The notes beneath the pieces were generated by a model. It was not told the DNA's origin. It made no database searches and was given only the letters and a program-made list of their open reading frames with translations. Position numbers and translations under genes: made by a program. From an uncultured Methanosarcinales archaeon (GTDB taxonomy: Archaea > Nanobdellota > Nanobdellia > Woesearchaeales > BS150m-G63), in assembly GCA_964630685.1 (NCBI GenBank), contig CAZVVW010000001.1:30236-94235 (forward strand): 64,000 bases of DNA. The letters run 5' to 3'. This document shows positions 15,007 through 33,444 of this stretch, piece after piece (positions within the stretch are counted from its first letter, which is position 1; each line of letters opens with the position of its first letter).

Positions 15007-15594
15007 TTAGGTTTTGTAAGCAATTATTATGATGTCTTTTTCTTCTTCAGTAATTTTTTTTACATTAAATTTATTTTTTATCAATTTGAGAATAGTTTCT
15101 CTTTTTTTGGATTTTTTTAGAAAGCTTAGAATCAATAGGTTTTTTGAAACTCTTTTAATATTATCTAATCCCTTTTCTATATGGTGGAAGTTTTGAATTG
15201 CTGTAATACTTGTAACGACATCAAAGCTGTTGTCTTTAAATGGGAGATTTTCTGCTTCTGCTAAAATGTATTTGCTTTTTTGCTTTTTTGCTTTATCTTT
15301 ATTTTTTGCTTTATCTTTGTTTTTTTCTTTATCCTTTGCTTTTTTTATTAGTTTGATTGCGGGGTCAATTCCTGTTTTATTGCAGTTTGTATATTCCCAG
15401 AATTGAGTTGTTAAACCAGTACCGCATCCGACATCGAGTAGAGTATCAGTTTGTTTAATCTTGATGCCTAACTTTTCAAGAAACGCTTTTATGAACTTAA
15501 GTTTTTTAGTCTGTTCTTCACCATGAAGCTCTTCATAACCTTCAGAAATTTGGTTGTAGTAATTGGGGCTTGGTGAAACCATATTAGTAATCAA
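15007..15594 (-). CDS. Class I SAM-dependent methyltransferase (Methyltransf_11-like) with a Lys-rich insertion
   Basis: LDVGCGTG motif I; acidic + hydrophobic motifs (ENLPFKDNSFDVV); overlaps cobO by 11 nt. Confidence 0.6.
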   Translation of the reverse strand: MITNMVSPSPNYYNQISEGYEELHGEEQTKKLKFIKAFLEKLGIKIKQTDTLLDVGCGTGLTTQFWEYTNCNKTGIDPAIKLIKKAKDKEKNKDKAKNKDKAKKQKSKYILAEAENLPFKDNSFDVVTSITAIQNFHHIEKGLDNIKRVSKNLLILSFLKKSKKRETILKLIKNKFNVKKITEEEKDIIIIAYKT

Positions 15595-16174
15595 TACCTT
15601 CTCTTGCTAAAATTTTTTTATTATAGGGATGCTTTACTTCCCCCATTTCTGTGACATAATCTGCAACATCTATCAATTCTTTTGGTGCCCCTCTTCCTGT
15701 GAGAATGAGTTCTGTGTTTTCTGATTTTATTTTCATTAGATTTAATATTTCTTCTGTGCTAATCAAACCTTTTGCTATTGCACAATTTATTTCATCAAGA
15801 ATAATTACATCATGGTCTCCACTTGTTGCAACTTTATGTGCATATTCAAATGCTCTTCTTACTGATTCTGCTTCTTCTTCATCTGGTAGAAATTTGTAGT
15901 GGCCATTATTATTCTTTTTTATGGATTCTTTTCCGAATTCATGAATGTGTGTTTGTTGGTCTGTTAAAGCATCTTTTCCAAATTGTGCAATTTTCATATT
16001 GGGAAGATGATTTTCAACAGCAAAGATTTCTCCTGTATCTCCACTTTTTAGAAATTGAATCATATAGATATTTAAATTATATCCTGCAGCTCTTAGCGCT
16101 ATACCTAAAGACATGGATGTTTTTCCTTTACCGTTTCCAGTATATATGTGCACCAATCCGAGTTTTTTTTTCAT
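15584..16174 (-). CDS. cobO: Cob(I)yrinic acid a,c-diamide / cob(I)alamin adenosyltransferase (CobA/CobO/BtuR family)
   Basis: IYTGNGKGKTSMSLGIALRAAG P-loop; C-terminal ...KHPYNKK...GIDY matches CobA (KHAFDAGVKAQIGIDY). Confidence 0.85.
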   Translation of the reverse strand: MKKKLGLVHIYTGNGKGKTSMSLGIALRAAGYNLNIYMIQFLKSGDTGEIFAVENHLPNMKIAQFGKDALTDQQTHIHEFGKESIKKNNNGHYKFLPDEEEAESVRRAFEYAHKVATSGDHDVIILDEINCAIAKGLISTEEILNLMKIKSENTELILTGRGAPKELIDVADYVTEMGEVKHPYNKKILAREGIDY

Positions 16175-16202
16175 TTTGGTAAGTTTAATCTGGCTTAGTT
16201 GT

Positions 16203-18437
16203 CTATCCGCTGCAAACAGAATAATTACAAGAAGAACATTTACAACAACCCTCTTGAAAGATTAATTTACCCTTACATTCAGGACAAACGTCTTTAGAGT
16301 TATTATTATTTTTTTGTGTTTCTTCATCTTCATCTTCATTTTCATCTTCATCTTTTTCATTATTTTTTTTTGCTTTTTCTTTTTCAATATTAATATTAAG
16401 ATTTAACACTTGCTGATCTTTACTTCCATCTCTATAAATTGTTACCCCCTTACATCCAAGTGTATAAGCGAGTAAATATACTTCTTCAACATCTTCCATT
16501 GTTGCTTCATTTGAAAAGTTAACTGTTTTAGATACTGCGTTGTCTGTATATTTTTGGAATACTGCCTGCATTTTTAGATGGTCTTCTGGATAAATATCAT
16601 GAGCTACCACAAAAGTCTTTTTTAATTTTTCTGGAATTTCATCAATATGTTGAATAGAACCTTGATTGACAATTTTTTCCATTAAACTTTTAGAAAAGAT
16701 CTTATGTTCTTCTAATGCTTTTTTGAAATTCTTATCAATATAGAATAATTCTTTTCCATCCATAACTCTTTTTACATAACTCAAAGCGAATAATGGCTCT
16801 ACTCCGCCAGAAGCATCAGCAATCATTCCAATTGTCCCTGTTGGAGCAATGGTCGTTCTTGTTGCATTCCTTATCTTAATGTGCTTTCCTTGGAAATATC
16901 TACTACTTTTATTGTAGATACTCTCATTCCAATTTGGAAATACACCTCTTTCTTTTGCTAATTCTATTGAAGCTTTATCTGATTCATCTTTTACAAATTT
17001 CATTACTTTTTCAGCTAATTCAACTCCTTCTTCACTATTGTAGGCTAAGTTTGATTGCATTAACATATCTGCCCAACCCATAACCCCTAATCCAATTTTT
17101 CTGTTCGAGTTAACCATTTTTGTAATTTCTGGTAAAGGATATTTGCTTCTATCAATTACATTATCTAGGAAGTGAATTGAAGTGTGAATTATTTTTTTTA
17201 ATTTTTTCCAATCAATTATACCTTCTCTGATAAAATTTCCAAGATTTATTGAACCTAAATTACATGCTTCATAAGGAAGTAATGGTTGCTCACCACAGGG
17301 ATTTGTACTTTCCATTTCCCCTATAGCTGGAGTAGGGTTGTCTTTATTTATTCTATCTAAAAATATAATTCCTGGATCTCCATTACGCCAAGCAGAACTG
17401 ACTAATAACTTAAATACTGTTTTTGCATTTAATTTTTGTACGCAACTACCATCTGCAGGATTTATTAAATCATAATCTTCATCTTTTTCAACTGCTTCCA
17501 TGAATTCTTCAGTTATTCCAACAGAAATATTAAAATTTGTTATTGCTTCATTTTTTTCTTTACAATTTATAAAAGTAAGAATATCAGGGTGATTTATTTT
17601 TAGAATCCCCATATTTGCTCCACGTCTCTTTCCACCTTGTTTAATTACTTCTGTTGCTGCATTATAGACTGTAAGAAATGAAACAGGCCCAGATGCAACT
17701 CCCTTTGTTGATTTTACTACAGAATTTTTTGCTCTTAATCTTGAAAATGAGAATCCAGTTCCGCCACCACTTTTATGGATTATTGCTGCATCTCTTAATG
17801 TGCCAAAAATACCTTCCATGCTATCTTCGATTGGTAGTACAAAACATGCAGCTAATTGTTGGATATCTGTACCTGCATTCATTAAAGTTGGTGAGTTTGG
17901 CAAAAAATCAAGGTTTGCCATCATATCATAAAATTCTTGTGTTATTTTTTTTAAGTCTGCTTTTTTGTTGTATTTTTTATCTGCTTTTGCTATATCTTTT
18001 GCTACCCTTTCAAATAAGTTTTCAGGATTTTCAATTAACTCACCTTTCATATTCTTTAATAAGTATCTTTCTTTAAGTACAGTGAGAGCATTTACAGTTA
18101 ATTTTTTAGAAGGACTAATTTTTCCAAGAACTGCTTTTTTTTCATCTCTTATAGATTTATGTTCATGTCTGTAAATAATATAAGCTTTTGCGGTTTTTAC
18201 ATGCCCTTTATTTATTAGTATGTTTTCTACCATGTCTTGGATAGATTCTACACATGGCACATCTCCATTAATTTTTTTTATTAATTCTAATTCAATTTCT
18301 TCTGCTAATTTTTTAGAAAGTGCTTTATTTGTTCCACCAACTGATTCTGCTGCTTTGAATATTGCGTTCGCTATCTTCCCTAGATCAAATGGAACTATAT
18401 TTCCATCTCTCTTTTTAATTTTAGAAATTTTTGTCAT
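16203..18437 (-). CDS. nrdJ: Class II (adenosylcobalamin-dependent) ribonucleotide reductase with N-terminal ATP-cone and C-terminal Cys4 zinc ribbon
   Basis: ATP-cone (KRDGNIVPFDLGKI), catalytic region with CGEQPLLPYEACNLGSINL, C-terminal CPECKGK...CCKCSSC. Confidence 0.85.
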   Translation of the reverse strand: MTKISKIKKRDGNIVPFDLGKIANAIFKAAESVGGTNKALSKKLAEEIELELIKKINGDVPCVESIQDMVENILINKGHVKTAKAYIIYRHEHKSIRDEKKAVLGKISPSKKLTVNALTVLKERYLLKNMKGELIENPENLFERVAKDIAKADKKYNKKADLKKITQEFYDMMANLDFLPNSPTLMNAGTDIQQLAACFVLPIEDSMEGIFGTLRDAAIIHKSGGGTGFSFSRLRAKNSVVKSTKGVASGPVSFLTVYNAATEVIKQGGKRRGANMGILKINHPDILTFINCKEKNEAITNFNISVGITEEFMEAVEKDEDYDLINPADGSCVQKLNAKTVFKLLVSSAWRNGDPGIIFLDRINKDNPTPAIGEMESTNPCGEQPLLPYEACNLGSINLGNFIREGIIDWKKLKKIIHTSIHFLDNVIDRSKYPLPEITKMVNSNRKIGLGVMGWADMLMQSNLAYNSEEGVELAEKVMKFVKDESDKASIELAKERGVFPNWNESIYNKSSRYFQGKHIKIRNATRTTIAPTGTIGMIADASGGVEPLFALSYVKRVMDGKELFYIDKNFKKALEEHKIFSKSLMEKIVNQGSIQHIDEIPEKLKKTFVVAHDIYPEDHLKMQAVFQKYTDNAVSKTVNFSNEATMEDVEEVYLLAYTLGCKGVTIYRDGSKDQQVLNLNINIEKEKAKKNNEKDEDENEDEDEETQKNNNNSKDVCPECKGKLIFQEGCCKCSSCNYSVCSG

Positions 18438-18512
18438 TTTTTATGCCTCTTTTTATCCCTTGTTTTTAGCTATATATTTAGCCATATATCTAGTTGGTTA
18501 GTTAATTCTACT

Positions 18513-20735: not shown

Positions 20736-20954
20736 ATGGTAACAACAATACAAGTAAGTCAAGAATTAAAAGAGCAATTGTCTTTTAGAAAAGTTTCTGC
20801 TAAAGATAGTTATGAAGAAATTATTTGGGATTTATTGGAAGACACAATGGAATTGAATGATCAAACTAAAAAAGAAATTAAGATTGCAAGAGAAGAATTT
20901 AAACAAGGAAAATTCGTGACTCATTCTCAATTAAAGAAAGAGTTGGGATTGTAA
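20736..20954 (+). CDS. Type II antitoxin (RelB/DinJ-like) partnered with the downstream RelE toxin
   Basis: 72 aa, immediately upstream (13-nt gap) of a RelE toxin. Confidence 0.5.
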   Translation: MVTTIQVSQELKEQLSFRKVSAKDSYEEIIWDLLEDTMELNDQTKKEIKIAREEFKQGKFVTHSQLKKELGL

Positions 20955-20966
20955 ATGGAGTTCTAA

Positions 20967-21218
20967 ATGTATGAAATAAATTATTCTAATTCTGCAATTA
21001 GGTTTCTTAAGAAACTTTCTAAAGATAAACAAAAACATATTTTATCAGTTTTAGAAAGAGCAAGAATCAGGCCAGAAAAACATTTTGAAAGATTGGTTGG
21101 TGAGAAGACATATAAAATAAGAGCTGGAAAATATAGAATAATTGCAGATGTGTATAATAAAGAATTATTGATTTTAGTAATTAAAATAGGTCATAGAAAA
21201 AATATATATAAAAACTAA
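20967..21218 (+). CDS. relE: RelE/ParE-family type II toxin (mRNA interferase)
   Basis: ...YRIIADVYNKELLILVIKIGHRKNIY. Confidence 0.75.
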   Translation: MYEINYSNSAIRFLKKLSKDKQKHILSVLERARIRPEKHFERLVGEKTYKIRAGKYRIIADVYNKELLILVIKIGHRKNIYKN

Positions 21219-31007: not shown

Positions 31008-32552
31008 TTATATAATTAATTGAGCTATTTCTTCATTACTTTTTCCTTCATGCACTGCAGTTATTAATTGGTCAACCATATTATAATCGTTAATATTAGG
31101 ATTAGTTATACCCATCATTGCTAATAATTCGTCTGAAGTTTTACCTTCAATTACTGATTGTTTTAGTTGTTCAATTCCAGAATAATCTGGTTCTGGAGGA
31201 TTTTCTATTTCTTCTATCATTGCTTGTACTTGTTTGAATGAGTCACATGAACGCTTAAAATGAGGTGTTGTTAGTTCATTACATAGATTATAATTGTGAT
31301 TGTTTAGTACAATGCCAAAATAACAACTATCTTTTGTTGTTTCTCTTTCTACATATTGGCAAAATTGACTGTCTTGTGTATGTTCTACAATTGTGCTGAA
31401 ACAATTATCTTTTTCTATTTGATTTGTTAATTGTCCGCATAGTTGGGCAGCTTCGTTGGGGTTTGAAGAAATTAAGTTGGATAATTGATCTTGAATGTCT
31501 TCTAAATCTACATTTTCAGTAGGTGTTGTGAATGTTACTGGTTCTTCAACTTGTGTTGGTTGTTCTAAGTAAGGTTCTCTACATCCTTCTATTTCTACGT
31601 GTTTGCAGATGTAATTTGTTTCTTCTGAGCAAGGGATGTCTTCTGTACATGCATCTTGGTCATCGCAGGTTGCAGGACATTTTCTACATTCTTCACATGG
31701 CCCACCACAGTCTATATTTTCTTCTCCTTGGTTTTTGATATTGTCTGTGCATGTTGGTTCTTGTTTTGATTCTTTGTAAATTTTTATAGGAATTGATGCT
31801 ATTGCTGTCTGTCCATTATATTTTACAGTTGCTTTGAGGGAGTAAGATCCTGGCTTAGTGGTTTCTTCAATAAGAATATTTATTTTTTTAGTGCTTTTTG
31901 TTTCCAGAGCTATTGTTTCTTCAGTTGGAGTCTGTAATACATTGCCATCTTGGTCTTGAATTGTATACATTACAGTTACATCATATCTTTTTTTAGTGCC
32001 CATGCTATCTAATGTTTGAATAAAAGATATTTTTTCTCCTGGTTGAGCTGTTGTAGAAATTGCTTCTAAACTTACATCTAAAAGAGTTTCAGGTGTTTGA
32101 TTGGGTTTTATTAATTTTGAATATCCAAAATAGATTGTTCCTGTTACTGCCATTATTAATATTAAGAAAACTAAAATTTGTTTTGGAATGTCTGCTTTTG
32201 GTGATTGTTGTGTTTGTTGTTGTGTTTGTTGTTGTGTTTGTTGTTGTGTTTGTTGTTGTGTTTGTTGTGTATGAGTTTGTGGATATTGTTGTTGCTGAGA
32301 GTATGGTTGTTGTGTTGGCGGATATTGTTGCTGTTGTACTGGTTGAACTCTTCCTGGCCAAGCTTGTGGTTGTTGTGCTAGTTGTTGTGCTGGTTGTTGG
32401 CCATATGTTTGTTTTATTGCTTGTTCAACTTGATAGTTTGCATAACCATAATTTAATAGAGCTTGTCTTATCTGTTGAATAGAATATCCTTGAGATAATT
32501 GTTGTTGGATGTAATTTATTAGGTTTTGAGGCATAAATTTTAGAAAGTGCAT
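31008..32552 (-). CDS. Q-rich (prion-like) N-terminal region + TM + Cys-rich extracellular domain + duplicated C-terminal helical motifs; the only minus-strand gene within the cluster
   Basis: QQ(T)QQQ repeats encoded by a 12-nt tandem repeat; hydrophobic helix VFLILIMAVTGTIYFGY; CxxC-rich segment. Confidence 0.45.
   Translation of the reverse strand: MHFLKFMPQNLINYIQQQLSQGYSIQQIRQALLNYGYANYQVEQAIKQTYGQQPAQQLAQQPQAWPGRVQPVQQQQYPPTQQPYSQQQQYPQTHTQQTQQQTQQQTQQQTQQQTQQSPKADIPKQILVFLILIMAVTGTIYFGYSKLIKPNQTPETLLDVSLEAISTTAQPGEKISFIQTLDSMGTKKRYDVTVMYTIQDQDGNVLQTPTEETIALETKSTKKINILIEETTKPGSYSLKATVKYNGQTAIASIPIKIYKESKQEPTCTDNIKNQGEENIDCGGPCEECRKCPATCDDQDACTEDIPCSEETNYICKHVEIEGCREPYLEQPTQVEEPVTFTTPTENVDLEDIQDQLSNLISSNPNEAAQLCGQLTNQIEKDNCFSTIVEHTQDSQFCQYVERETTKDSCYFGIVLNNHNYNLCNELTTPHFKRSCDSFKQVQAMIEEIENPPEPDYSGIEQLKQSVIEGKTSDELLAMMGITNPNINDYNMVDQLITAVHEGKSNEEIAQLII
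32205..32270. repeat. 12-nt tandem repeat (ttgttgtgtttg x5.5) encoding (QQQT)n on the minus strand
   Basis: Perfect copies 32205-32264 plus a partial. Confidence 0.85.
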
Positions 32553-32662
32553 TATTTATTTAAAACTTTTGAAATGTAGATTTATTTTTTGTTGAAGATC
32601 TTTTGGTTTTTTTGTTGGTTTTTTCAAAAAAATATAGTATGGATTTATTAATTCTAAAATTG

Positions 32663-32698
32663 TTAGTTATAGGGTAATAATTAGTTATAGGGTAATAA
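32663..32698. promoter_or_regulatory. Perfect 18-bp tandem direct repeat (ttagttatagggtaataa x2) upstream of a TA module, followed by a (TA)7 tract at 32727-32741; candidate antitoxin operator/TATA region
   Basis: Read directly. Confidence 0.35.
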
Positions 32699-32772
32699 AA
32701 AGTAAATTAAGGTAAAACAAAAGGTTTATATATATATATATCAAATATATCCCATATAATGGTGATGTATAT

Positions 32773-33006
32773 ATGGTACAAGCAATGATTAAAATATCTG
32801 AAAATGCAAATCAAATTTTGAATATTGTTAAAGCTAGATTTAATCTTAAAGATAAGAGTGGAGCAATTGAAAAGGTTGTAATAGGTTATGGTGGAGATTT
32901 TTTAGAGCCAGAATTGAGACCTGAATTTATTCAAAAAATGCAGAAAAGACAAAAAGAAGAAACCGTTAAAGTTAAAGATTTCAAAAAACATTTTAAATTA
33001 AATTAA
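32773..33006 (+). CDS. Putative antitoxin (77 aa) of a RelE-type TA module
   Basis: Small ORF 16 nt upstream of a RelE-like toxin; its 3' end and the spacer are a (taaat)5 microsatellite. Confidence 0.35.
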   Translation: MVQAMIKISENANQILNIVKARFNLKDKSGAIEKVVIGYGGDFLEPELRPEFIQKMQKRQKEETVKVKDFKKHFKLN

Positions 33007-33022
33007 ATTAAATTAAATTAAT

Positions 33023-33290
33023 ATGTATATTTATGAAATTAGAAAAAGTGTAGAGAAAGAATTCTTTAAATTAGCAAAGAAAAATCCAAAACAATTAATA
33101 ATAATTGAAAAAAAGATTCATGAAATAATTAAAAATCCACATCACTATAAAAATTTAAAAAAAACCATTACAACCTCTAAGAAGGGTGCATGTTGAGGGT
33201 TCTTTTGTGTTGGTGTTTTCTGTAGATAGCGAAATCGAAAAGATAATTATTGAAGATTATGATCATCATGATAAAATTTATCATTGATTG
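33023..33290 (+). pseudogene. RelE/ParE-family toxin disrupted by a frameshift in an A8 homopolymer (33157-33164)
   Basis: MYIYEIRKSVEKEFFKLAKKNPKQLIIIEKKIHEIIKNPHHYKNLKK then +1 frame PLQPLRRVHVEGSFVLVFSVDSEIEKIIIEDYDHHDKIYH (cf. RelE ...RVGDYRIIY...IGHRKDIY). Confidence 0.6.
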
Positions 33291-33444
33291 TTTTAATTGT
33301 TAAGATTGATTAATGACTTCTCAAAACCTTTTAGGTTTTTTCGAAAGTTTTATATATTTCTCAATTATTTTATTCTCTATTAATTAGGTTTTTTTAGATA
33401 GTAGTACACATTATCCATTTAAGTGTACTAAAAAGAGGTTAAAA

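Follow-up and report, generated by a model that had tools for sequence, protein, structure and literature searches.

In the archaeal DNA analysed here, a stretch of 64,000 nucleotides that we refer to as the window, a gene for a small toxin is split by a run of eight adenines and lies beside an intact antitoxin gene. We read the locus as an ordinary, recently inactivated toxin gene next to its intact antitoxin, a decay state and not a switch, and give this reading a probability of about 0.8. Decay of this kind, in which a homopolymer frameshift breaks the toxin and the antitoxin is left as an orphan, is familiar from toxin-antitoxin (TA) modules, and the earlier note on this DNA had named it as such; on the evidence below it is the best reading. 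Such decay is tolerated when the toxin goes first, because loss of the antitoxin first is lethal. The window locus gives the same picture as other degenerate TA loci that have kept an orphan antitoxin: one base inserted into a homopolymer would have killed the toxin, and the antitoxin is intact. Nothing material separates the window locus from these cases; its local colour lies in a run that was made by a recent Arg-to-Lys codon change, and in two expanded repeats.

The A8 run lies at 33157-33164 on the plus strand, with a T before it and a C after it as read from the window sequence, and is the site of a +1 insertion that splits a toxin gene of 87 codons. The N-terminal part (33023-33164, plus strand, frame 0) encodes residues 1-47, which comprise strand 1 and two helices, and its open reading frame continues to a stop at 33194-33196. 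The complete frame-0 ORF, 33023-33196, therefore has 57 amino acids and reads MYIYE...NLKKTITTSKKGAC, also written MYIYE...HHYKNLKKTITTSKKGAC, up to the stop. The C-terminal part (33165-33287, plus strand, frame +1) encodes residues 48-87 plus the stop at 33285-33287; translated from 33165 it reads PLQPLRRVHVEGSFVLVFSVDSEIEKIIIEDYDHHDKIYH followed by the stop, and it carries the beta-sheet and the conserved residues. Those encoded 3' of the run are R54, H56, S60, F61, E77, H81, H82, D83 and Y86. The frameshift at A8, together with every sequence feature that the earlier note had described around it, was found in place. Since the downstream part is in frame +1, the reading frame is restored by A7 (minus one A) or by A10 (plus two); the earlier expectation that A9 or A6 would give an intact toxin was arithmetically wrong.

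The split arrangement goes beyond chance, since the protein restored by A7 aligns over 99-100% of its length to homologues, with E values down to 3e-35. Its match to the NCBIfam profile TIGR00053 extends from residue 2 to residue 86 and thus crosses the junction. No uninterrupted frame spans the full toxin domain, the frame being lost after residue 47 in the window and in all 13 other assemblies as well. The toxin frame is otherwise undamaged: no stop interrupts 41 codons of AT-rich sequence and none of the conserved residues is missing, suggesting that the lesion is very recent, or that it is tolerated because some full-length product is still made. Under the reading as a recently inactivated gene, translation would leave the frame after residue 47 and stop 10 codons later, yielding a 57-aa fragment. 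This fragment would end after the second helix, lacking both the sheet and the conserved Arg, His, Glu and Tyr of the predicted ribonuclease site, and to judge from its sequence it would be unable to act as a toxin, which amounts to a loss of function. The orphan antitoxin is probably still made, since its gene, promoter and ribosome-binding site are intact.

The identity of the broken gene was established from the A7-restored protein of 87 aa. It matches TIGR00053 (YafQ family addiction module toxin) with E=1.2e-18 and 67.4 bits, a score that does not reach the curated cut-off of 87.25 bits and therefore points to a related or sister subfamily, not to a trusted member. All 22 aligned toxin homologues (22/22) match the same profile, with a best E of 3.5e-21. 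Against PF05016 (ParE_toxin) the restored toxin scores 23.2 bits for a cut-off of 23 over residues 4-76, a marginal pass, and the 57-aa product as encoded gave no family match in the same profile search. A search of a large protein collection returned 1313 toxin homologues. The 120 of these that were listed are 86-92 aa long, except for one of 122 aa; all are encoded in a single frame with 98-100% query coverage, and the best among them is 78% identical. The named homologues among those listed belong to Woesearchaeota, Nanoarchaeota or Thermoplasmata and are labelled 'YafQ family' or 'RelE/ParE family toxin'. The 22-sequence alignment contains 21 invariant and 26 nearly invariant columns, all kept by the window toxin, and around two thirds of the 21 invariant columns fall 3' of the frameshift.

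The AlphaFold (AF2) model of the restored toxin has a pLDDT of 84.7, with strands at residues 3-6, 52-57, 61-68 and 73-77 and helices at 8-20 and 22-37. This is the order of the RelE-type fold: an N-terminal strand, two helices and then an antiparallel sheet. The best PDB matches of the model (Foldseek, TM 0.65-0.79, probability 0.99-1.0) include 4fxh RelE, 9g12 RelE1, 7bwf YoeB, 3oei RelK and 4mmj YafQ, and E. coli RelE and M. tuberculosis RelE1, RelE2 and RelK are among them. The toxin-family profile, run against PDB sequences, retrieved nothing at E<=0.01. The proposed placement of the toxin in the RelE/ParE superfamily is borne out by the PF05016 score and by the RelE-type fold of the model. 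By profile (marginally) and by predicted fold, it is best called an 87-aa member of a YafQ-like archaeal subfamily within that superfamily.

The window toxin resembles YafQ-like toxins (TIGR00053) in its length of about 87 aa, its full-length profile match and its position 3' of a small antitoxin gene, and its predicted fold superposes on RelE, YoeB and YafQ structures. It differs from them in that the window copy is frameshifted and in its partner, which is a DUF2683 protein and not DinJ. The predicted fold, together with the conserved His, Arg, Glu and Tyr, suggests that intact members of the family would have ribonuclease activity, and the C-terminal HHDxIY motif is presumably reminiscent of the catalytic His/Tyr or His/Phe residues near the end of YoeB and YafQ. 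By analogy, the module would work like RelBE, YefM-YoeB or DinJ-YafQ.

The antitoxin gene (32773-33006, plus strand) is intact and encodes 77 aa. The profile search that had been proposed for this ORF named a family, DUF2683 (PF10884), over residues 15-70, but with 26.1 bits against a cut-off of 27 the match itself falls just short. The homologues strengthen the assignment: 21/21 aligned antitoxin homologues match DUF2683 at E<=1 (best E 2.2e-8), and most of the antitoxin homologues listed carry a precomputed PF10884 match. Homologues reach 97% identity; among those with NCBI names, several that are 84% identical are called 'DUF2683 family protein' and one that is 79% identical 'antitoxin'. 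The window antitoxin retains 34/34 of the family-invariant residues, which, with the full 77-aa ORF, upholds the earlier statement that it is intact. It resembles other DUF2683 proteins both in the PF10884 match and in the conserved place of the family directly 5' of the toxin. The AF2 monomer model is poor (pLDDT 56.8), with residues 1-9 unstructured and helices at 10-22 and 28-39. There was no match to a Pfam ribbon-helix-helix (RHH) family, and the antitoxin compared with PDB by sequence gave chance-level matches only. In the searched literature a single paper names DUF2683, in passing, and we found no experimental definition of its function there; we infer that the antitoxin binds DNA.

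The organisation of the two genes is conserved. An antitoxin homologue lies directly 5' of the toxin in 75/80 related loci, and the remaining five have too little upstream sequence. The 80 loci represent one genome per species, taken from 448 genome-contig matches, and their toxins are 56-74% identical to the query. This conserved gene order, combined with the toxin and antitoxin family matches, identifies a two-gene type II TA cassette, in agreement with what had been claimed for the pair. The window copy belongs to the AT-rich genome of an uncultured archaeon that is probably Woesearchaeota-like. The cassette is hosted by Woesearchaeota, Pacearchaeota, Nanoarchaeota, Micrarchaeota, Altiarchaeales, Methanosarcinales/Methanoperedens, Methanocellales and Thermoplasmata, and its differing genomic neighbourhoods suggest that it is mobile. 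The DUF2683 / TIGR00053-like cassette is very widespread and strongly conserved across archaeal phyla; it is apparently unstudied, as a literature search found no experimental characterisation of it.

Other assemblies bear on whether the A8 run is real and whether it varies. Contigs were traced via the neighbouring gene, the antitoxin and the 57-aa fragment, and A8 is the consensus in 13/13 other assemblies read, which derive from different samples and from three sources (JGI, ENA and Logan). Indel errors typically arise in homopolymers, and if the run were a sequencing or assembly artefact the true genome would have A7 and an intact toxin. This is extremely unlikely, since the same A8 recurs in all these assemblies, built by different pipelines. 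In addition, the other 20 A or T runs of at least 8 bases in the window leave the ORFs unbroken; the other A8, T8 and T9 runs sit within long open ORFs.

The same assemblies show how little the locus differs between samples. Nine contigs span all of 32553-33444, an interval with the promoter, the two genes and the intergenic region 3' of them, and they differ only in the promoter TA tract, which has 6, 7 or 8 copies. None of the assemblies that span 33007-33444, which takes in the spacer, the toxin gene and the intergenic region after it, has a single substitution there, and the TTAAA copy number between the genes is that of the window in 12/12 assemblies where it is countable. The sampled population is almost clonal. 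The SAMN102319xx and JGI samples are probably water-column metagenomes from the Cariaco Basin. One short contig (L092) differs also at its own 5' end. Another (L104; ENA SAMN10231903 scaffold_233555, 687 bp) is the same as the window through A8 and diverges completely 2 nt later, 21 nt before the end of the contig; its antitoxin has two non-synonymous changes, E47V and R49S, and the contig may represent a structural variant or a tip of the assembly graph.

The earlier note had raised the possibility of phase-variable toxin expression, in which frequent changes in the length of the A run, at the DNA level, would leave the toxin on in subpopulations with A7 or A10 and off in those with A8. Homopolymer runs are prone to slippage, and a length-variable repeat does exist in the promoter of the same locus, namely (TA)6-8, but it is the TA tract that differs among the assemblies while the A run has the same consensus length in all of them. 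A collection of 15 billion proteins contains the 57-aa fragment, from NCBI, JGI, ENA and Logan, and neither the exact A7 nor the exact A10 protein. Two exact-pattern scans of metagenome contigs for alleles with another length of the A run gave no match and say nothing on this point, since that collection evidently lacks these contigs. The run is also a lineage-specific, unconserved accident of an AGA to AAA change, and a stochastic switch-on of the toxin has no evident benefit. Taken with the uniform A8 consensus, these points make phase variation highly improbable, and we do not retain that proposal.

Comparison with homologous loci shows how the run arose. In most of 62 such loci the site reads TTA AGA AAA CCN (L-R-K-P), and the longest A run there is at most 5 in 59/62; A7 is found in one locus only (L046), where it is in frame, and the site is frameshifted in 0/62. 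The closest intact relative (L105-L108), whose antitoxin is 90% and toxin 78% identical to those of the window, has CTA AAA AGA CCA, which indicates that the window gained the G-to-A change first and one A second. The ancestral codons were thus ...CTA/TTA AAA AGA CCA (L-K-R-P). A G-to-A substitution (AGA to AAA, Arg to Lys) turned them into TTA AAA AAA CCA, creating a run of A7, and one A was then added, probably by replication slippage, to produce A8.

The undamaged downstream frame, with all its conserved residues kept, would also fit a locus at which low-level expression persists, either by RNA polymerase slippage that yields A7 transcripts or by a +1 ribosomal slip, leaving an attenuated TA module. 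In the ribosomal variant, tRNA-Lys would slip from AAA to an overlapping AAA, with CCA (Pro) as the next codon, and the product would have L-K-K-P, the exact junction of the family. The literature describes slippage on A/T runs as well as frameshift sites rich in A, among them A_AAA_AAR in some archaeal genes (PMC5009743, PMC1088944), but the published cases have no tie to the A8 site of the window, and slippage at just eight A is not known to have been measured in archaea. The 62 homologous loci also speak for a lineage-specific accident, given their short A runs and intact frames, and 120/120 listed homologous proteins are single-frame and near full length. The 86 nt downstream of the run show no excess of folding over shuffled sequence (z=+0.77). 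In the 0 frame the run is followed by ACC, an ordinary codon that is neither rare nor a stop, and the 16-nt spacer upstream of the toxin, which has no Shine-Dalgarno motif, already weakens its translation. We consider such residual expression unlikely.

Neither a conserved slippery site nor a conserved two-frame layout was found among the 62 loci and the 120 listed proteins, and no stimulatory element was detected. With an unconserved run and no RNA structure 3' of it, there is no sign of programmed frameshifting. It is a distinctly unlikely proposal that A8 serves as an attenuator, with slippage giving a trace of active toxin, the amount of which the length-variable (TA)n TATA box would adjust and an excess of antitoxin would buffer; if true, it would make the locus a 'leaky pseudogene' TA module in a DPANN archaeon.

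Two simple repeats at the locus have grown relative to the closest intact relative. A (TTAAA)5.8 microsatellite at 32993-33021 on the plus strand (Tandem Repeats Finder) codes for the C-terminal end of the antitoxin with its stop and occupies the 16-nt spacer between the genes, matching the TAAAT-type microsatellite that had been reported between antitoxin and toxin. The corresponding junction of the relative, AAATTAAATTAAA, consists of the antitoxin C-terminus and stop, a 1-nt spacer and about 2.6 TTAAA units, so the window junction represents a 15-nt (TTAAA)3 expansion; spacers in homologous loci are usually 3-8 nt. The promoter TTTATATATA of the same relative has grown into (TA)7 in the window. 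Both the (TTAAA)3 expansion and the TA expansion in the TATA box would fit a locus freed from selection for coupled expression.

The TATA-box region (32725-32741, plus strand) is TTTATATA extended into (TA)7, with the TA tract at 32727-32741, and corresponds to the conserved TTTATATA of homologous loci. The suggestion that (TA)7 forms the TATA box is well founded in this respect, as the tract coincides with the TATA box conserved in those loci. The TATA-like octamer has a modal position of -40 from the start codon in homologues and lies at -46 in the window. Among assemblies, the 6-8 copies of (TA)n move the start of the TATA-like element relative to the start codon, from -44 to -48.

Between the TATA box and the antitoxin start, at 32745-32772 on the plus strand, lies a segment of operator-like repeats, ATATAT / ATATAA / TATAT, with GGTGAT. 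The elements 3' of (TA)7 in the window are ATATAT at 32745-32750, ATATAA at 32754-32759 and the Shine-Dalgarno-like GGTGAT at 32761-32766. Homologous modules share this layout: a TATA box, lineage-specific direct repeats about one helical turn apart and a GGTGAT ribosome-binding motif. Between TATA box and ATG, 47/67 loci have direct repeats that are 6 nt or longer and recur at a spacing of 8-14 nt (mostly 11 or 13), and 43/67 have a GGTG-type motif at -16 to -4. Examples of the repeats are TATATAC..ATATATA..TATAGG in the relatives of the window, three copies of ATTAATA in Methanoperedens and TTATAAAACAT in Thermoplasmata. The conserved layout points to a candidate family operator between TATA box and start codon, and the lineage-specific repeats look like co-variation of operator and repressor, as far as the promoter sequences indicate.

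The autoregulatory operator had previously been sought further upstream, in a perfect 18-bp tandem repeat, TTAGTTATAGGGTAATAA x2, at 32663-32698 (Tandem Repeats Finder). This repeat occupies -110 to -75, outside the conserved cassette, and we rejected it as a family operator because it lies outside the segment common to the closest intact relative and 66 other loci; it has no counterpart upstream of homologous modules. Only within about 50 nt of the start codon does the upstream sequence resemble that of the closest relative. The repeat is present in two copies in 10/10 assemblies that reach that far upstream, and the 18-mer, allowing up to 3 mismatches, was found nowhere else in the window. 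It sits between the divergent promoters of the minus-strand gene 31008-32552 and of the TA cassette. A scan for bacterial-type promoters and terminators gave no excess over shuffles, though such a scan is uninformative in an archaeon. No RNA genes came out of Rfam and tRNA scans of the window.

The neighbouring gene, 31008-32552 on the minus strand, encodes a protein of 514 aa. A 12-nt tandem repeat, TTGTTGTGTTTG x5.3, lies inside it at 32205-32294 and encodes a Q/T-rich low-complexity stretch. The product has 508, 512, 514 or 516 aa among assemblies, and in one of them (L001) the TTGTTGTGTTTG repeat region has about 146 nt more, and the gene is called at only 381 aa. Either this is a length-variable surface-protein-like gene or the repeat is mis-assembled. 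Elsewhere in the window, the minus-strand ORFs 15587-16261 and 16206-18440 overlap by 56 nt, close to a T9 run at 16163-16171; this may be a second homopolymer-associated frameshift or simply two overlapping genes.

The window contains another TA module, which is intact, at 20736-21218. It consists of an antitoxin gene (20736-20954, 72 aa) and a toxin gene (20967-21218, 83 aa) separated by a spacer of 12 nt. The toxin scores 31 bits against ParE_toxin, matches RelE_StbE weakly and has no TIGR00053 match. This module has the same superfamily and the same antitoxin-then-toxin order as the frameshifted one, and its own antitoxin is different, not DUF2683. Describing the frameshifted gene as a second RelE, in the sense of a paralogue of 20967-21218, proved unfounded: BLASTP gives E=4, with no significant pairwise similarity, and the comparison that had been suggested is for this reason unusable as a reference for the intact state. 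As it is not a paralogue, 20967-21218 was also ruled out as a repair template. The ORF of 759 aa directly 3' of this module resembles, by eye, a methionyl-tRNA synthetase.

For the genome, the result means that an annotation is due as a DUF2683 antitoxin with a frameshifted YafQ-like toxin pseudogene, instead of two hypothetical small ORFs. The locus would also provide a clean and datable example of a conservative AGA to AAA change that makes a homopolymer, which then slips, and it shows the expansion of simple repeats in an AT-rich DPANN genome. Beyond annotation the significance of the broken copy is small; it is the cassette family, and not this copy, that merits experiment.
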